Sequence record: PX930851.1
Length of the DNA: 64,000 bases
Strand: one strand, 5' to 3'
Source: a phage
Part shown: one piece after another, positions 19,656 through 64,000 of the stretch
Position numbering within the stretch: position 1 is the stretch's first letter
Layout of the letters: each line of letters opens with the position of its first letter
The notes under the pieces: model-generated
The model's input: only the letters and a program-made list of their open reading frames with translations
Database searches by the model: none
What the model was told of the DNA's origin: nothing
Translations under genes and position numbers: made by a program

Positions 19656-19685
19656 ACTATACCATAGTCTTGTCAGCTTGTAAAC
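19656..19685 (-). promoter_or_regulatory. T4-type early promoter
   Basis: minus strand gtttac-N18-tatagt preceded by tgg. Confidence 0.55.
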
Positions 19686-21112
19686 TAAAATTTTAATTCA
19701 TTTGCCAAAGCATCTAACTGAGCTCGAGTGGATTCATTTCTTTGATAGCGATTCTGCTCAGCCTGAATCTGTTGTGAACCTGCTACTTCACTCACTTCAG
19801 TTGGAGTAGAATCTTGTTCAATTTCTACCCATTTTTGATTTCCTTTTTGAACACCCATCAAAAACTTATTCCACTTATTCTTATCACCATATCGTGATTT
19901 GATTTGCTTAATAAGTTGTTGTTCAGCAGCTGCTAGCTCCTCGGTTTCAATGACCGCAAGCATAAAATCAGCTGTTGCTGGAAGACCAGCAGATTCTGCA
20001 ATATCGCTCATGTTAACATCGGAAGAGTCCCAAGCTTGTTTACCGACCTGTGCTGCAGTCCAAAGAACAGTTTCGGTTTCAACAGCCAGAGCACGCAATT
20101 CCTCTGCGATAGCTTTAACAGTTGTGTAACTATTTTCTGAATAAACTCTAATGCGGCAAGATTTACAAATACCTAGATAGTCGACAATAATGATTGTTGG
20201 AACAAAATTCTTTTTGAGCTTTAATTCATTTAAAAGCGATCGAAATGTATTAGCGTCTGCCCCACCATTAGGATACTGTTTAACGATTAAACGACCGAGA
20301 GTAGATTTCTCACGCCATTTTTCCATTTTTCCTTTATACTCAGCGTAAGAAATATGCCCATCATCAATATCGTCAAGAGAAACATCGAGCATGTTAGCAT
20401 CAATACGTTTAGCACAGACTTCTTCTGCCATTTCCATGGAGATATAAAGAACGTTATGACCAAGCTGCAAATAATCTGCTGCTAATGAACAAAGTCCTAA
20501 TGACTTACCAACGTTAACGCCAGCCATTAAAACGTTCAGTGTTCCTGTTTCAGCTCCGCCTTTAGTAATTTTGTTTAGAATTCTGAGTTTAAATGGAACT
20601 TTACGAGCTTTATTCATATAAGATAGCCAGCGTGCTTCGTAGTCATCCATCCAATCATGACCAACGTAGCTATCAAATGAAATTGATAATGCTTGACGCA
20701 TGATGTCAGGAATAGCACCAACATCCGGCATTTTCTTATTTCGTTTTTCCGGAGGAAGCTCAGCATTAGTTTGAATTTCGATTATTTTAGACGTAGCATT
20801 AAACATCGCCCTTTGCTGAACATATTTTTCTGTTTCTTTTACTAACCAACTGTGGTCTTCTGGAGAATCGGCTAGTTTTGAAATAAGTGTTTTTACACCA
20901 GAATATTCTGTTTCAGTAAATGAACTATTTTCTAATGCAACATTTAACGCATTAATAGATGGAACGCTATGGTACTCATTAACGTGAGATTTAATTAATT
21001 TGAATGTATTTTTAGCTGGACCACTTTCAAAATATTCTGAATCCATATATGGCCAAACTTTTGAAAAATAAGCTTGATCAAATATGAGATGAGAAAGAAT
21101 AATTTCTACCAC
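19685..21112 (-). CDS. 41: replicative DNA helicase gp41 (DnaB-like)
   Basis: 475 aa; Walker A GVNVGKSLGL. Confidence 0.9.
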   Translation of the reverse strand: MVEIILSHLIFDQAYFSKVWPYMDSEYFESGPAKNTFKLIKSHVNEYHSVPSINALNVALENSSFTETEYSGVKTLISKLADSPEDHSWLVKETEKYVQQRAMFNATSKIIEIQTNAELPPEKRNKKMPDVGAIPDIMRQALSISFDSYVGHDWMDDYEARWLSYMNKARKVPFKLRILNKITKGGAETGTLNVLMAGVNVGKSLGLCSLAADYLQLGHNVLYISMEMAEEVCAKRIDANMLDVSLDDIDDGHISYAEYKGKMEKWREKSTLGRLIVKQYPNGGADANTFRSLLNELKLKKNFVPTIIIVDYLGICKSCRIRVYSENSYTTVKAIAEELRALAVETETVLWTAAQVGKQAWDSSDVNMSDIAESAGLPATADFMLAVIETEELAAAEQQLIKQIKSRYGDKNKWNKFLMGVQKGNQKWVEIEQDSTPTEVSEVAGSQQIQAEQNRYQRNESTRAQLDALANELKF

Positions 21113-40704: not shown

Positions 40705-41175
40705 TTAATCATGTTTCCACACCCCATCGGTATTTGACCAAAGTCGCTGATTATCTGATCCTCGCCACAGCTTTTTAGTCGGAAGATTTTTCTCATACTT
40801 CCCATCAATAATAACATCAACATATTTAAGCATTTCTAGTTGTTTAATATCTTCAAACTTATATCCTGTCCACAACCAAATGCTTTTATTGGGATAAAGA
40901 TTTTTTACTGTTTGAACAATGCAATGAATAACATCTCGGTTATCAGGATAGAGAGGGTCTCCTCCAGTTATAGTTAATCCTTCTATATAATCATTATTCA
41001 AACATTCAATTAATTGTTCCAGCGTTTCACCAGTGAATGGAACACCGTTTCTAGCATTCCATGTTGATTTATTATAACACCCTTCGCATTTATGCAAACA
41101 ACCTGTAACGAAAAGAACGACCCTGCATCCAGGGCCATTCACAAAATCACAAGGATAAAATCTATCATAATTCAT
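40705..41175 (-). CDS. nrdG: anaerobic ribonucleotide reductase activating protein (radical SAM)
   Basis: 156 aa; CLHKCEGC (CxxxCxxC) cluster motif. Confidence 0.85.
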   Translation of the reverse strand: MNYDRFYPCDFVNGPGCRVVLFVTGCLHKCEGCYNKSTWNARNGVPFTGETLEQLIECLNNDYIEGLTITGGDPLYPDNRDVIHCIVQTVKNLYPNKSIWLWTGYKFEDIKQLEMLKYVDVIIDGKYEKNLPTKKLWRGSDNQRLWSNTDGVWKHD

Positions 41176-42989
41176 TGGTGTTTAACCCTATGCATGATTT
41201 CTTTATTTTTTCCAAGATTAAATCCGCGTTCATTCGGATTTCCCAAATAGCCACAAGTTCTTCTTATTGTGTTCATCTTTTTAGGATCAGTTTCTCCACA
41301 AATAGAACAAACAAACCCGTTTTCAGTAGGAGTCATTTCATGGGTACTTCCACACGTAAAACATTTATCTACTGGCATGTTAACACCAAAATAATCTAAA
41401 TGTTGTGCAGCATAATCCCATACAGCCTCAAGACCTTTTAAGTTATTTTTCATATCAGGAAGTTCAACATAAGAAATGTGACCACCTGTTGCAATGAAAT
41501 GATATGGGGCTTCGCGAGAAATCTTTTCAAACGGGGTGATATTTTCTTCTACTGAAACGTGGAAACTGTTAGTGTACCAGCCTTTATCAGTAACATCCTT
41601 TACACTTCCATATTTTTCGGTATCAAGTTTACAGAAGCGATAACAAAGGTTTTCAGCAGGAGTAGAATACAAGCTAAAAGCAAAACCGGTTCTTTCAGTC
41701 CACTGCTTAAGACGAGCATTCATTTTAGTTAAAATTTCTTGTCCAATATCACGACCGGCAAGAATATTCAATTCGTGAATACCAATGTATCCTAAGGACA
41801 CTGAACTTCTACCGTTTTTAAATAACTCAATTATGTCGTCATCAGGTTTAAGACGAACCCCAAATGCACCTTCTTGGTAAAGAATAGGAGCAACAGTCGC
41901 TTTAACTCCTTTTAAGGAACTAATTCTGCACATCAAAGCTTCAAAACATAAATCCATTCGTTCATTGAACAATTCGATAAATTTCTGTTCATTGAACTGT
42001 GTTCCAATATAAGAATCTAACGCGATGCGAGGAAGATTCAGTGTTACAACACCAAGATTATTACGTCCATCAAGAATTTCATTACCGGTTGAATCTTTCC
42101 ACACACTCAAGAAACTGCTGCAACCCATTGTAGAAACAGGAATAGATGAGCCGGTGATAGCTTTATTGTTCTTAGCTGAAATAATATCAGGATACATTCT
42201 TTTGCTTGCGCACTCTAGAGCAAGCTGTTTAATATCATAGTTCGGATCGTCTTTATAAAGATTAACACCTTCTTCAACAAACATAACAAGCTTAGGGAAA
42301 ATAGGAGTTATCCCATCACGACCAAGACCTTTAATACGATTTTTCAGAATTGCTTTCTGAATCATTCGTTCAGTCCAGTCAGTTCCTGTACCAAATGTAA
42401 TTGTTACAAAAGGTGTTTGTCCGTTTGAACTAAAGAGAGTATTTACTTCATATTCATAAGCTTGGAATGCATCGTATACATCTTTTTCTGTTTTAGATTG
42501 AGCATAATTCAACGCATCAGCGATTTGCCATTTTTCTGCATCCTCAATATGTTTTGCATAGGTGCGTTTAACATAAGGAGAAAGTACTTTATCTACATTA
42601 GCAAAAGTCGTTCCGCCATATTGGTGAGAAGCAACCTGTGCAGTAATTTGTGCCATAATTGCAGTAGCAACACCGATTGATTTAGGAGTTTCAATCTGTG
42701 CATTACCAAGCTTAAATCCGTTCTCAAGCATTCCTTTTAAATCTACTAAACAACAATTAGTAAATGGAAGAGCAGGGGAATAATCAATATCATGGAAATG
42801 GATAATTCCGCTTTCATGCGCTTTCATAATAAAAGACGGGACCATATTTTTGGCAATGTGTTTAGACACAATACCAGCCATAAGGTCCCGTTGAGTTGGA
42901 AAAACACGAGAATCTTTATTAGCATTCTCGTTTAAAAGGTCTTTATTAGTTTTATGAATCAATCCTTCAATTTCTTTTTCAATTGTCAT
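41172..42989 (-). CDS. nrdD: anaerobic ribonucleoside-triphosphate reductase, uninterrupted
   Basis: 605 aa; C-terminal glycyl radical motif RRTCGYLG and zinc ribbon CFTCGS...CSICG; no intron. Confidence 0.9.
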   Translation of the reverse strand: MTIEKEIEGLIHKTNKDLLNENANKDSRVFPTQRDLMAGIVSKHIAKNMVPSFIMKAHESGIIHFHDIDYSPALPFTNCCLVDLKGMLENGFKLGNAQIETPKSIGVATAIMAQITAQVASHQYGGTTFANVDKVLSPYVKRTYAKHIEDAEKWQIADALNYAQSKTEKDVYDAFQAYEYEVNTLFSSNGQTPFVTITFGTGTDWTERMIQKAILKNRIKGLGRDGITPIFPKLVMFVEEGVNLYKDDPNYDIKQLALECASKRMYPDIISAKNNKAITGSSIPVSTMGCSSFLSVWKDSTGNEILDGRNNLGVVTLNLPRIALDSYIGTQFNEQKFIELFNERMDLCFEALMCRISSLKGVKATVAPILYQEGAFGVRLKPDDDIIELFKNGRSSVSLGYIGIHELNILAGRDIGQEILTKMNARLKQWTERTGFAFSLYSTPAENLCYRFCKLDTEKYGSVKDVTDKGWYTNSFHVSVEENITPFEKISREAPYHFIATGGHISYVELPDMKNNLKGLEAVWDYAAQHLDYFGVNMPVDKCFTCGSTHEMTPTENGFVCSICGETDPKKMNTIRRTCGYLGNPNERGFNLGKNKEIMHRVKHQ

Positions 42990-58874: not shown

Positions 58875-59218
58875 CTAGTACTCAATCCTCGATTATAAGA
58901 ATCTACTAAACGGTCAACCATTGAATGACAAGCGGCTTTATCTTTTTCCTCCGCAACTGAACATTCTAGGGTATTCCACTTTTTAGCATATCGTTTTAAT
59001 AATGTATCGTTTTTGTATCTGCTTGATTTATCTCTTTCTCCGTCTTTATATGCATATATTAATTTCTGCGCAAATTCAGCTTGGCATGCTTTATTTTTCC
59101 CACAATAATCTGCCGCAGTGCGGTTCACATACTCCCTAATTTCAGTATATGATGTATCTGCTGACGCATAAGCAGAAAATGAAATTAATCCTATACATAA
59201 AACCAAAATTTTAGTCAT
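58871..59218 (-). CDS. secreted protein
   Basis: 115 aa with signal peptide MTKILVLCIGLISFSAYASA. Confidence 0.5.
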   Translation of the reverse strand: MTKILVLCIGLISFSAYASADTSYTEIREYVNRTAADYCGKNKACQAEFAQKLIYAYKDGERDKSSRYKNDTLLKRYAKKWNTLECSVAEEKDKAACHSMVDRLVDSYNRGLSTR

Positions 59219-59756
59219 TTACTATTTCCAAAAGTTTATTATTTTTAAGGTAATTAGCCTTTTCTAGGACTTCAGAAGCATATTTAGAACCTGCTTTAAC
59301 ATTCCATCCCGAATTATAAGAGGATATTGCTTTTCTTATATCGCCCTTATGTATATTTAACCAATAAGAAAGTTCAATGTACGCCCAGGAAGCTGAATTG
59401 GATCGTTTATTCAACATTCTTTTTATTTCAGCATCGGTCATATTATAACCAAGTTCCTTAACTCTCGCTCGCATAGTAGGCAAATAATTTTGGAACATTC
59501 CGTAAGCATGATGTTTTGGTTTAGATTTTAAATTAACTCCGCCAGAGCTTTCTTGCCATAAAATGGCTGCCATTATATGACCTAATCCACTCTTATGAAC
59601 ATTTTGATGTGTTTTATATTTTCCATCCTTAGAAAACTGTTCCCCGAATTGATACGCGTAACGCATGTTATCGAGTTGGACATTACTGAAAGTATGCTCG
59701 GAGCTATGTGCCATCATAGAAATGGCCAATAGACCAGCGAGTAGTGCTTTTCTCAT
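59211..59756 (-). CDS. secreted protein, function unknown
   Basis: 181 aa with signal peptide MRKALLAGLLAISMMAHS. Confidence 0.5.
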   Translation of the reverse strand: MRKALLAGLLAISMMAHSSEHTFSNVQLDNMRYAYQFGEQFSKDGKYKTHQNVHKSGLGHIMAAILWQESSGGVNLKSKPKHHAYGMFQNYLPTMRARVKELGYNMTDAEIKRMLNKRSNSASWAYIELSYWLNIHKGDIRKAISSYNSGWNVKAGSKYASEVLEKANYLKNNKLLEIVND

Positions 59757-59763
59757 GTTTACC

Positions 59764-60225
59764 TCATTGAGTTTTAATTACTGCTTTAGAAGCCTTTCCT
59801 GGTAAACGACGACTGTTGATAATTGCCATCCTACATTGAAGTGACGGGTCTTTGAACTTCTCATTAGGCTTACAAACCGTAAATCCAAGCCAAAGATTTC
59901 CATCTGTAATTTCTAAACGTCCAGGGCGATATTCAACTCCATCAATAAAATCCTCATCAATGTCAGGACGCGGAGGCATACTCAGGAATTCATTAACTTC
60001 TAAAACATGGTCTTTTATTTTATGGAATAATTCAAAAACATATGTCTCATCAATCTCCCGTTGAATTGCACGATCAAGAAGATGTTGAGAATATTTTAGA
60101 TGAAACGATGAGACTCCTGCTGCTTTTGATGCCTCACGAATCTCATTGTTAATTTGACGAAACTCCGACTCAAAATGACGACGAAGCTTATTTCGACGGA
60201 TAAAAACTTCTGTATTGATAGTCAT
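59764..60225 (-). CDS. regB: RegB endoribonuclease
   Basis: 153 aa MTINTEVFIRRNKLRRHFESEFRQINNEIREASKAAG...; early promoter upstream. Confidence 0.8.
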   Translation of the reverse strand: MTINTEVFIRRNKLRRHFESEFRQINNEIREASKAAGVSSFHLKYSQHLLDRAIQREIDETYVFELFHKIKDHVLEVNEFLSMPPRPDIDEDFIDGVEYRPGRLEITDGNLWLGFTVCKPNEKFKDPSLQCRMAIINSRRLPGKASKAVIKTQ

Positions 60226-60252
60226 GTTGTTCTCCTCTTAACTGATAGAAAA

Positions 60253-60282
60253 ATTATACCACAGTCAAGAGGAAAAGTAAAC
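60253..60282 (-). promoter_or_regulatory. T4-type early promoter for regB
   Basis: minus strand gtttac-N18-tataat preceded by tgg. Confidence 0.6.
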
Positions 60283-60284
60283 AG

Positions 60285-60605
60285 TTATTCTTTAAATCTA
60301 ATCAATTTATTCATAGACTTTGAAACTTCTGCACGAACCTCATGTAAGTTTTTAAGCTGTTCAAGACGCTGCTCATAGTAAGCAATTTCATCTTCTTCGA
60401 GACAGTCCTGTGAATCTTCTTTAAGATAACGTGCATAGTCCTGAAAAGCTTTACGGACTACTTCCTGGAAGTCATCAAGACTTTGAATTTTCTTAGGAGC
60501 GGCAGATACACGACGAGGTGCAGTATAATACTCATAACCAAACCCTGCACTTAATTGAGCCATTAGTATTTTTCCTCTGGTTGGAACACTGCACGACAAG
60601 CCCAC
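60285..60605 (-). CDS. hypothetical protein
   Basis: 106 aa. Confidence 0.45.
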
Positions 60606-60865
60606 ATACTGGCTTCTTTGAGTTTCGTTTTAGCAATAGTTAACTGATCGAGGCTTTCAGCATAATTCTTCGCGAATTCACAGTCTTCACAATTATCTAG
60701 TGCTTCCCAGAATTCATCGTATAAAGCGTCAAAGATAAGTCCCAAACGAACTTCAGCGTCTTTGATAGCATTCACTTTACCGATTTTCTCTTCAGTATGC
60801 GGCTTATAACCCTTAATATCTTCAATCATATTTAACTTCCTCACCAGTACATAAATCGTATTCAA
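60563..60865 (-). CDS. hypothetical protein
   Basis: 100 aa. Confidence 0.45.
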
Positions 60866-61043
60866 CTAAACGAATAGGTTCATGAATGCCATATCCCTGA
60901 ACAGAAATTTCTGTCGTAGGATAAATTCCATCAATATCACCCATATTCCAGGCTTCATTAAATTGCTGTTCGCCTGAATTACTAAACCACTCGGCGAAAG
61001 CATTTAGTACATCTTTAGAACCTTCAATAATTATCTTTGCCAT
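60822..61043 (-). CDS. hypothetical small protein
   Basis: 73 aa. Confidence 0.4.
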   Translation of the reverse strand: MAKIIIEGSKDVLNAFAEWFSNSGEQQFNEAWNMGDIDGIYPTTEISVQGYGIHEPIRLVEYDLCTGEEVKYD

Positions 61044-61405
61044 TATAAGCTCTCAGTAAAGGTACGAGCGATAACGTCGCGCTGCTGTTCCGGAGTCAGA
61101 GAGTTAAAGCGAACTGCATAACCGGATACACGGATGGTCAGCTGCGGATATTTTTCCGGATGCTTAACTGCATCTTCCAGAGTTTCACGACGCAGAACGT
61201 TAACGTTCAGGTGTTGACCACCTTCAATTTTAACTGTAGGTTGTGTTTCAATTTCAATTTCACGGGCATGCAAACCGTAGAAAATTTCCGGGTCTACAAA
61301 AGAGTCCTCTTTAAAGGTTTTAGAGACAATAATTCGTGCTTGAATACCATCTTCAAAATAAATAGTACCTTTATGTGTGCCTTCAAGAATTTGATATGCT
61401 TTCAT
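61043..61405 (-). CDS. autonomous glycyl-radical cofactor (GrcA/YfiD-like)
   Basis: 120 aa; C-terminal half [59 protein letters not shown] with RVSGY glycine-radical motif; 3' half GC-richer. Confidence 0.8.
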
Positions 61406-61412
61406 ATAAACC

Positions 61413-61742
61413 TCAATTAGAAAATAAATTTATCCAAGATTGTTCTTTAATTAAAAATGGCTCAGAATCATATGCCATTAAACTTTGGGTGATTAGTCCT
61501 TTAAAAGGTCCATCAATAAATTCCATGGTAAAATATGGAATTTTATTCATTAGCCGTGCATTAGGAGCAGTACATAAAACTCTGCATCCTTTGAATACAC
61601 CCTTTTGTAATTTGTATTGCTTGGGATAAAATTCGCTCAAAATGTTATTATTTGCTAAAATTTCAAAATGATTCACCAATTTATTTTTAATAGTTTTTGG
61701 CGAAAAATAGAGATATTCGAAAAGCTGTGTGTCTGTCATCAT
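61413..61742 (-). CDS. hypothetical protein
   Basis: 109 aa. Confidence 0.45.
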
Positions 61743-62281
61743 TGCATTCCAATAACAAAAAATTGAGGACGAACTGTTTCACCTGTTTCAGCATTATAGC
61801 TTCGACAACAGTGTTGTACCGTTTTAATATGGATATTGTAAATCTTATCCATATCAGGAGCTTTAATAGGTTCGTCAATTATGTACAAGATACGAGAAAG
61901 CGATAACCCACGGAATTTATGACCTTCATTACCGATAAAACTACGGACAGAATCAGTAAATAAACGAAAACGTATATCATCATTAGAATAACGCGAAAAT
62001 TCCTTTTTAATGTTATTTGCAGAAATTTTAGCGTAAGCTGAAGTATTAGAAAGAACAATAACTGTTCCGCCATCATACAGCCAATTAGCAGCAAAGTTAG
62101 TCACAGCAATTGATTTACCGGATTGACGTCCACCATCTATACGAAGTGTGCAGTACTGTTTGAGCACATCTTCCATTGGTGGAAGATAATCATTCTTACA
62201 AAGTTCTTCTACTCTAGCATCAGAATGGTGTGTAAAAGCATTCATCAGGGATAGATAAGGACCAGTTAAAAATGTTCTCAT
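61739..62281 (-). CDS. small P-loop NTPase-like protein (start uncertain; alternative ATG at 62329)
   Basis: Walker A GGRQSGKS, Walker B ILYIIDEP; 180 aa from ATG at 62281. Confidence 0.45.
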   Translation of the reverse strand: MRTFLTGPYLSLMNAFTHHSDARVEELCKNDYLPPMEDVLKQYCTLRIDGGRQSGKSIAVTNFAANWLYDGGTVIVLSNTSAYAKISANNIKKEFSRYSNDDIRFRLFTDSVRSFIGNEGHKFRGLSLSRILYIIDEPIKAPDMDKIYNIHIKTVQHCCRSYNAETGETVRPQFFVIGMQ

Positions 62282-62422
62282 TTTATTCTCTCTAAGTTTG
62301 GGCCATTCCGTGGCGCATGAATTGTCCATTTCTGTATTTACCCATTACCGCACTTGGGCTCGACCTTATCACAGGTTGGCGGGAATCCCTCATAGAATCA
62401 TGAGGTCCAGGTTGTTCCCATA

Positions 62423-62896
62423 TTATTTGAACGATTTAACGTACTGAATAGAACCTTTACTATTCACAAAGGCAATTTTACCATTTTTATTATACATGGT
62501 AGCAGTACGCTGATAACCATAGGTTTGTTTACCAGATTGATAACCAACTAATGCAAAATTATCTTCACCCATTTTATTCTGTTTAGCGCGAATGCGTTCA
62601 TGACCATGTGCCATAAGAACCTTAGCATCACCAGTTGCAATGGATCGACGAGTTTTTTCATCTTCAACTGCATTAACAAAGTCGTCAAATGAATCAAATT
62701 TAGCATGAGATTTATTATACAATTTTCCATCTACTGCATAATTATATCCCTGTACATCCATCTCAACTTCTGTACCATCATCCAATACAGCAGTAATTTT
62801 TTGACCTTTTTTAAATTTCAAAAGATCAGTAAAAGATTCAGCAATAATTTGAGAATTAATAGCTGCTTCAGTGATAAATTCTTGATATGTTTTCAT
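62423..62896 (-). CDS. internal protein with capsid-targeting sequence
   Basis: 157 aa; N-terminus MKTYQEFITEA matches the T4 IP targeting sequence with I-x-E cleavage context; adjacent to denV/e. Confidence 0.6.
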   Translation of the reverse strand: MKTYQEFITEAAINSQIIAESFTDLLKFKKGQKITAVLDDGTEVEMDVQGYNYAVDGKLYNKSHAKFDSFDDFVNAVEDEKTRRSIATGDAKVLMAHGHERIRAKQNKMGEDNFALVGYQSGKQTYGYQRTATMYNKNGKIAFVNSKGSIQYVKSFK

Positions 62897-62905
62897 GGGT
62901 TTCCT

Positions 62906-63322
62906 TTAAATGTAAATATTTTTACCGTAATACTTATACCAATGTGGTTTCATTAAAATTTTTTCATCAAGTCGTTGTTGACTCAATTTAATAGCTGATT
63001 TGCATGGATTATAATCATTTTTCCATTCTATTGGAATATCGCTGATGTCAGGAACTTCAGTATCTTTTATACTGAACCCGCGTTTTAAGCATTCCGTTAT
63101 AATGTCTAATTGACGCTTTCGCAAAAATTCTAACTTATCGTAAAAGAACGTAACATGACCAGAACCTAAAATAAACTCGGAAGATATTTTAAAATCTTTA
63201 ACGCGCTTACCGTTTGCCACATGCTTACGAACTATACCAAAAACACGCGGCAATTCACGGTATTCTGCGATTAAATGTTGATCAGCAAGTTCAGATACTA
63301 AAGTCAAATTAATACGAGTCAT
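62906..63322 (-). CDS. denV: endonuclease V (pyrimidine dimer DNA glycosylase)
   Basis: 138 aa [29 protein letters not shown]...; early promoter upstream. Confidence 0.9.
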
Positions 63323-63347
63323 TTTATCCCTCCAAGTAACTGTGAAT

Positions 63348-63377
63348 ATACTATCACAATTCTAGGAGAAAGTAAAC
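63348..63377 (-). promoter_or_regulatory. T4-type early promoter for denV
   Basis: minus strand gtttac-N18-tagtat. Confidence 0.5.
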
Positions 63378-63381
63378 AACT

Positions 63382-63927
<546 letters not shown>

Positions 63928-64000
63928 TCATTATTCGGTAAAGTGAAGGACCCATCACATATTGCCACTGAGTACGAGGAATAAGAGCAAAAGCATCCAT

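Follow-up and report, generated by a model that had tools for sequence, protein, structure and literature searches.

The question raised by positions 61043..61405 of sequence record PX930851.1, a stretch of 64,000 nucleotides of phage DNA (the whole of which is termed the window), is how a single gene can join a half that looks like the phage around it to a half that reads as host DNA letter for letter. The window is the genome of a T-even-type phage, and its nearest relative by blast is RB51, with 99.2% nucleotide identity across the gene in question. This gene lies on the minus strand, encodes 120 amino acids from an ATG start and was assigned as vs.6 (Y06I) on the basis of the list of open reading frames, matches in Pfam and the Protein Data Bank (PDB), and synteny with RB51. 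The encoded protein is 98.3% identical to T4 vs.6 (NP_049730), and, as far as sequence comparison can tell, the reading frame is the orthologue of T4 vs.6/Y06I itself, an autonomous glycyl-radical cofactor, and not a mere relative of it. A first-pass annotation made from the letters of the window had pointed to Y06I as a T4 homologue and had proposed a mosaic gene with a host-derived 3′ half; the homologue proved to be the same gene, and the mosaic was confirmed at the nucleotide level. The account favoured here, and considered probable, is that vs.6 is an old phage copy of the bacterial gene grcA that has recently been overwritten by the grcA of the current host through recurrent gene conversion, and that its product would act as a Y06I-type spare part for pyruvate formate-lyase (PFL).

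A host-identical tract in the 3′ half of vs.6

The host-identical tract occupies 61053..61227 on the minus strand (gene nt 179–353, codons 60–118) and is 175 nt long, with 100% identity to Escherichia coli grcA. A blastn search found grcA in all 5426 complete E. coli genomes, at 98.4% across gene nt 179–363, and by megablast the 175-nt tract itself was at least 99% identical in 5156 of the 5426 genomes and 100% identical in many strains. When the whole 64-kb window was compared with the same genomes by megablast, the tract was the only match. Its 5′ edge falls one base past an A/G difference in codon 60 (ATT, Ile, in the phage; GTT, Val, in the host) and its 3′ edge 10 nt short of the end of the gene, and alignment to E. 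coli grcA revealed no host resemblance past the vs.6 stop codon. The host's synonymous codon is used at 58 of the 58 tract codons, among them the non-preferred GTA, CAA, AAG, CAT, TAT and TTT, and agreement at every one of these positions therefore reflects common descent and not chance or convergence. The gene for PFL, pflB, was considered as donor of the tract and rejected: it is only 80% identical in nucleotides and the residues of the PflB C terminus (TKEQQQDVITRTFTQSM) differ from those of vs.6, although the C-terminal domain of PflB (1h16, residues 697–759) has the fold family and the RVSGY motif in common with vs.6. The donor is therefore grcA and not pflB.

The tract also stands out in base composition. 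The 100-nt intervals at 61050–61199 have a G+C content (GC) of 0.53 and 0.48, whereas those on either side range from 0.25 to 0.39. The 177-nt 3′ part of the gene has a GC of 0.49 against a mean of 0.343 for the window (standard deviation 0.039, z 3.8), a value attained by 0.02% of 177-nt intervals in the 64 kb and in one other place only. The GC at third codon positions (GC3) is 0.42 in the tract, equal to that of E. coli grcA, and 0.20 in the 5′ half of vs.6. Both the elevated identity to grcA and a GC above the phage range agree with the first-pass annotation, and the step to GC-rich, host-like DNA that it had placed at about 61043..61210 is real, but exact host identity runs from 61053 to 61227. 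The other stretch with a GC of at least 0.49, at 19920–20108, lies inside a minus-strand open reading frame of 475 amino acids (19685..21112) that we take, from reading its sequence, to be the gene 41 helicase; this stretch gave no megablast match to E. coli and is therefore not a second host-derived tract.

At the protein level, Gly_radical (PF01228) was the sole Pfam match in the 120 amino acids of vs.6 (residues 60–101, E 2.2e-18). The top match among solved structures was E. coli GrcA (PDB 6owr, 127 amino acids; E 4.6e-42 over vs.6 residues 22–120), followed by PflB (PDB 1h16/1cm5), with vs.6 residues 58–120 aligned to PflB residues 697–759 (E 4.8e-26). Translation and alignment to 6owr and 1cm5 place the glycyl-radical motif RVSGY at 61118..61132 on the minus strand (residues 92–96), where Gly95 (codon 61121–61123) aligns with G102 of GrcA and G734 of PflB. 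Residues 61–120 of vs.6 (E61–L120), RVSGY included, are identical to residues 68–127 of E. coli GrcA, so that the C-terminal match to GrcA/YfiD recognized in the first reading extends over 60 residues and not 55. The protein thus has the features of the GrcA/YfiD group, being a small stand-alone Gly_radical protein with RVxG[FWY] near its C terminus and with C-terminal homology to PflB past the site of O2 cleavage. Loci L153–L163, on IMG/VR contigs labelled ‘viral’, were found to encode a C terminus of the PflB type (TKEQQQDVITRTFTQSM) at a GC of about 0.5, and look like bacterial pflB fragments rather than phage vs.6 homologues.

The 5′ part of vs.6 (61228..61405, minus strand; codons 1–59 and the first base of codon 60) is AT-rich and of phage lineage, with a GC of 0.34, in agreement with the first reading, which had called the N-terminal half phage-like. 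It begins with the phage-type N terminus MKAYQILEG..., and alignment across six genera showed this N-terminal motif to be conserved in Tequatro-, Mosig-, Jiaoda-, Slopek-, Pseudoteven- and Karamvirus. Comparison with the N-terminal half of GrcA gave 36% amino acid identity over 39 residues (E 5e-6) and 46% nucleotide identity. These values indicate that the 5′ half is an old, diverged homologue of grcA and not unrelated phage sequence, and the simplest reading would be that the whole of grcA was captured long ago by an ancestor of these phage genera. Given this homology, the gene is an old copy with a freshly overwritten block, and not a fusion of unrelated parts. E. coli GrcA is likewise a small stand-alone protein, but the window vs.6 is 7 amino acids shorter and the N-terminal halves are only weakly homologous, the 39 aligned residues falling within the first 59 of vs.6. 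Unlike host grcA, vs.6 lies in a presumed phage operon, is translationally coupled to vs.5 and has an AT-rich 5′ part. The promoter and terminator of the host gene are not carried, the identity ending within the last 10 coding nt.

Host alleles, phage divergence and shared polymorphism

Among the phages of Klebsiella, the Jiaodavirus members Mexia, KP179 and PKO111 carry a phage-type 5′ half that is 73% identical in nucleotides to that of the window, and they have the same 5′ junction. Their 3′ block has a GC of 0.53–0.55, with flanks at 0.37–0.39, and encodes two Klebsiella-type residues, L and E in place of E77 and K81 (LLDAVEH where the E. coli type has LEDAVKH). A metagenome scan with a 44-mer common to phage and Klebsiella returned a complete Jiaodavirus genome (L194) and, on 21 bacterial contigs, the most frequent Klebsiella grcA allele; a scan of the same kind with a 45-mer specific to Mexia gave zero matches. 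When compared with this most frequent Klebsiella allele, L194 shows 4 differences in 171 sites, which all fall within gene nt 339–351, and has 100% identity to it over 158 nt. The corresponding counts for the other Jiaodavirus genomes were 5 (L109), 8 (Mexia), 15 (KP179) and 18 (PKO111) of the 171 sites. The E. coli and Klebsiella alleles themselves differ at 21 of 171 sites, the window also differs from the Klebsiella allele at 21, and L109 and L194 differ from E. coli at 22–23 (22 for L194). Protein search and contig look-up gave bacterial matches to Jiaodavirus of 94–95%, while the best among the 80 loci of a GTDB scan, from which K. pneumoniae is missing, was 89%. A clade of host-like tracts made up of phages only was recovered in 0 of 300 bootstrap neighbour-joining trees. 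The counts indicate that phages of different host genera carry the allele of their own host, and that the tract follows the host.

Copies of the same domain in other phages served as controls. No host-like tract was found in those of Karamvirus (Enterobacter hosts), Krischvirus (E. coli) or T5-like phages (E. coli and Salmonella), which are 70–82% identical in nucleotides to any bacterial grcA and have a GC3 shifted toward the phage value (0.27–0.29 in Karamvirus). Selection at the protein level alone therefore does not keep host nucleotides. Slopekvirus has kept the Klebsiella-type residues at about 80% nucleotide identity, and changes from host G/C to phage A/T stand to the reverse as 24:5, which is how an older, decaying replacement would look. 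A 19-kb IMG/VR contig (locus L112) contains a GrcA-like open reading frame of 150 amino acids whose 3′ block has 91% identity to grcA of Yersinia; the locus may be bacterial, belong to a prophage or represent another host-like copy.

Next, Mosigvirus genomes (PHB12, phi25-307, PNJ-9 and TH12, with two genomes from IMG/VR) were compared with the window. Identity was 68% in the upstream gene vs.7, about 90% in the 5′ half of vs.6, 98–100% in the tract and 69% in the downstream gene vs.5, and the Mosigvirus tract differed from E. coli grcA at 0–4 of 171 sites. One locus (L089) had no differences at the 171 sites either from the window or from E. coli. Among approximately 648 Tequatro- and Mosigvirus records, identity to the window was below 95% in 190 for the 5′ half versus 6 for the tract, and departures from the host in these phages were mostly from G/C to A/T. 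By this comparison, the tract is of far more recent origin than the phage lineages in which it is found.

Four E. coli genomes with 99.4% identity to the tract were read for single nucleotide polymorphisms (SNPs), and 13 phage sequences were compared with them. The bacterial genomes contained three SNPs (gene nt 192 A>G, 219 T>C and 282 C>A), and all three recurred among the 13 phages, although parallel mutation is possible. Over 175 nt, nine phage records had 100% identity to the E. coli O157:H7 NE1127 allele and five to the O43 RM10042 allele. The Shigella phages sb1, sb2 and sb3, which come from one study, are about 6% divergent over 8.2 kb and have 12 differing sites in the 5′ half of vs.6. 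In the tract of these phages only two sites differ, where about 10 would be expected at the local rate, and the two are the host SNPs 192 and 282. The pattern is suggestive, but not decisive, of ongoing exchange between host and phage.

Proposed mechanism, function and competing explanations

The balance of these data tips slightly toward a mechanism in which frequent and still ongoing conversion from the host chromosome holds the glycyl-radical block of T-even-type vs.6 at identity with the current host's grcA. The recipient would be a strictly lytic phage, one that breaks down the DNA of its host, and the process a self-perpetuating update loop bounded by the limits of homology. In such a loop the N-terminal half of the old grcA copy would have drifted to phage composition, while the conserved domain would have stayed similar enough for the highly active homologous recombination of the T4 type to pair host DNA, either as fragments or intact, with the phage copy. 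The heteroduplex or copied block would then extend to the limits of homology. The 5′ limit would be codon 60/61, at the start of the diverged half; the 3′ limit, which falls at nt 353 in E. coli phages and at nt 338 in Jiaodavirus, would be the phage-specific Shine–Dalgarno and start region of the gene that follows. Each replacement would restore perfect homology and favour the next event; between replacements the tract would decay toward A+T, and lineages that had decayed too far, such as the Karam-, Krisch- and T5-like phages, would leave the loop. The alleles point to at least two independent replacements, one with E. coli as donor and Tequatro-/Mosigvirus as recipient and one in which Klebsiella was the donor to Jiaodavirus, and there were probably many more than two.

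A more sparing scheme would need only two recent replacements by host DNA, one among the phages of E. coli and one among those of Klebsiella, with spread thereafter by phage–phage recombination among co-infecting Tequatro- and Mosigvirus (and Jiaodavirus). In its favour, vs.6 as a whole is more alike between Mosigvirus and the window than are its flanks (about 90% in the 5′ half against 68–69%), which shows that the gene moves between genera, and the identical 5′ junction in all phages fits few founding events. Note, however, that the 5′ half is about 10% diverged where the tract is 0–2% diverged, for which gene transfer between phages is insufficient by itself. Moreover, the variants within the tract coincide with E. 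coli SNPs, one transversion included, and are the sole tract differences in sb1, sb2 and sb3, phages that were isolated together yet are 6% divergent. Spread from so few events is therefore regarded as unlikely, though it keeps an appreciable chance of being correct.

Recurrent conversion from the host has several points to contend with. Bootstrap support on 171 nt is modest, at 61% for Escherichia with the phages and 11% for an exclusive group of Klebsiella and Jiaodavirus, and with trees this weak the argument rests on the direct difference counts. Fisher tests on single phages, comparing third-position differences in the 5′ half with those in the tract, gave p = 0.003 to 0.15. Across about 650 related phage genomes, some of the shared SNPs could have arisen in parallel at third positions, and locus L084 combines two SNPs that are found on different E. 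coli alleles. Much of the homogeneity of the E. coli phages could also be due to a few acquisitions that were then passed from phage to phage. Recombination of the UvsX type with host DNA is extrapolated from general T4 biology, no event having been observed directly, and the benefit of vs.6 to the phage rests on proposal, no in vivo study of it having been found.

Y06I and YfiD are described as biochemically validated spare-part proteins in a passage of PMC8683613, where Wagner et al. 2001 is cited for the reconstitution of O2-fragmented PFL by T4 Y06I. With 98% identity to T4 Y06I, the vs.6 protein of the window would be expected to function as a PFL spare part too. The PFL-activating enzyme of the host would install the radical on Gly95 of vs.6, and the activated protein would dock on PflB that has been cleaved by oxygen at Gly734, replacing the lost C-terminal domain. 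The fermentative output of acetyl-CoA, formate and ATP could then continue in an infected cell that is unable to make its own PflB or GrcA. The phage would carry a copy of its own because host expression is shut off and host DNA destroyed after infection.

The anaerobic ribonucleotide reductase NrdD is also an oxygen-sensitive glycyl-radical enzyme, and it had been put forward in the first reading as a possible client. The phage genes nrdD (41172–42989, 605 amino acids) and nrdG, for the activase (40705–41175), do lie on the minus strand of the same window, about 18 kb from vs.6, and the protein might serve NrdD instead of host PFL. In BLASTP, however, vs.6 had no detectable similarity to the phage NrdD (best E 5.8), and NrdG was likewise without similarity to vs.6. 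The C-terminal 60 residues are 100% those of host GrcA, PflB is the next-best PDB match, and Y06I rescues PFL biochemically in the work cited in the same passage of PMC8683613. The suggestion that vs.6 serves NrdD thus found no backing in the sequence and is very unlikely to be right; with a domain identical to the host PFL type and no similarity to NrdD, PFL is the expected client.

Hardly any chance is left to an explanation without recent exchange, in which grcA was captured in ancient times and the domain was then held by strong purifying selection, perhaps at the level of codons. The domain is indeed extremely conserved in protein across phage and bacterial homologues. Yet there are no differences from E. 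coli at 58 third-codon positions, the non-preferred codons included, the Karam-, Krisch- and T5-like phages keep the same domain at 70–82% nucleotide identity with an AT-shifted GC3, and in Klebsiella phages the tract has the Klebsiella allele instead. Identity at synonymous sites and the switch with the host effectively refute ancient capture as the source of the match.

Transfer in reverse, such that the 3′ half of E. coli grcA came from a phage, is just as hard to credit. Identity alone gives no direction, and direction is unresolvable for a single SNP, but the E. coli tract groups with enterobacterial grcA (with 90% identity to Citrobacter, for example), it has the same GC3 (0.42) as the 5′ half of E. 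coli grcA whereas the phage 5′ half has 0.20, and it is present in all 5426 genomes at the ung–grcA–eamB locus. Finally, virtually no weight can be given to an assembly or contamination artefact. Short host-identical DNA in a phage grown on that host might come from host reads chimerised into the phage contig, but the same mosaic and junctions recur in about 650 independently sequenced phage genomes, the reference T4 among them, with reading frame and coupling to vs.5 intact.

Precedents, genomic neighbourhood and minor features

Host–phage intragenic recombination in the cyanophage genes psbA and psbD was reportedly described by Zeidner et al. in 2005. Sullivan et al. 2006 (PMC1484495) document recombination of this kind for the same genes, which are metabolic genes carried by T4-like phages. 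The vs.6 gene resembles psbA/psbD in being a host-derived metabolic gene of T4-like phages, with patchy GC and with segments swapped between host and phage copies; here the tract is 100% identical versus 46% in the 5′ half, at a GC of 0.49 versus 0.34. It differs from psbA/psbD in having a single, sharply bounded tract of 100% identity, in residing in enterobacterial T-even phages that degrade host DNA, and in that each of two host genera has its counterpart allele among the phages, which makes direction and donor unambiguous.

Annotation as vs.6 or GrcA is present in hundreds of phage records, and the gene and its biochemical role are already known from T4 Y06I, so that recurrent host-to-phage conversion is the only point that is possibly new. 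No prior account of the nucleotide-level mosaic of vs.6 or of host tracking was found in the literature searched, the T4 genome review (PMC150520) and the nuclear magnetic resonance and structure paper on GrcA (PMC6754787) lying outside its scope, and no priority is claimed. The addition made here is a clear example of a gene in a virulent phage that has in part been overwritten by the host allele, recently, in a host-specific manner and probably repeatedly. As a compact natural reporter, vs.6 could inform on the frequency of recombination between virulent phage and host DNA, on the speed at which acquired DNA is ameliorated toward phage composition, and on the host on which a T4-like phage recently grew. 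If conversion is indeed ongoing, it would provide a quantifiable natural marker of gene flow from host to virulent phage and of recent host history. The mosaic has a practical side too, as grcA has been chosen as a conserved marker for the polymerase chain reaction (PCR) and quantitative PCR in the typing of Straboviridae phages of E. coli (PMC12845203). Since 175 nt in the 3′ part of this gene match the host gene exactly, primers placed there would amplify E. coli DNA.

The genes around vs.6 follow the minus-strand order e (63382–63876), denV, Ip4, vs.8, vs.7, vs.6, vs.5, vs.4, vs.3, regB and vs.1, and from the annotation of RB51 and T4 the slot of vs.6 inside the T4-type vs.8–vs.7–vs.6–vs.5–vs.4–vs.3–regB block has been kept. 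Neighbouring open reading frames match the Pfam families REGB_T4 and Acb2/Tad1 hairpin. T4 has the same placement of the gene between vs.7 and vs.5, the same mosaic and the same host-identical tract, whereas the neighbourhood in the window is of the RB51/T2 type, with Ip4 where T4 has ipII/ipIII. The T4 gene differs from that of the window by few substitutions, for example His73 in place of the Arg of both window and host. This change, a non-synonymous G>A at gene nt 218 of the reference T4 (locus L164), stands within an otherwise host-identical tract and was absent from eight other phage sequences compared.

A Shine–Dalgarno sequence for vs.6, GAGG, was read from the sequence at 61411..61414 on the minus strand, where it overlaps the stop codon of vs.7. 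At the phage-specific 3′ end of vs.6 (61043..61052, minus strand) the phage has GAG AGC TTA versus GAA AGC CTG in the host, and the three synonymous differences in these last 10 coding nt yield a GAGAG element resembling a Shine–Dalgarno sequence before the start of vs.5. The vs.5 open reading frame (60822..61043) begins at an ATG that overlaps the vs.6 stop codon (TAATG), and in the Klebsiella phage Mexia the position equivalent to the GAGAG element is annotated as a ribosome-binding site. A promoter and terminator scan found no sigma-70-like promoter on the minus strand between Ip4 and vs.3, and vs.6 is presumably co-transcribed with its vs.8–vs.3 neighbours. A ‘terminator’ on the plus strand at 61209–61223 was set aside, as it falls within the coding tract but on the strand that does not code.

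An Rfam scan of 59000–64000 gave zero matches at E ≤ 0.1. The spacer between Ip4 and vs.8 (62330–62422) has a GC of about 0.5, with 0 Rfam matches and a fold no better than that of shuffled sequence (z 0.22). In two Jiaodavirus loci (L002 and L165) the gene that overlaps the vs.6 stop codon starts MSIEDIKGY or MAIEDIKGY, like vs.4 of the window and not like vs.5, and vs.5 appears to be missing from these Klebsiella phages. In the window vs.4 is a minus-strand open reading frame of 100 amino acids at 60563–60865, two genes downstream of vs.6, and it matches the Pfam Acb2/Tad1 hairpin (E 1.1e-19), a family of phage sponges against cyclic-nucleotide immune signals.

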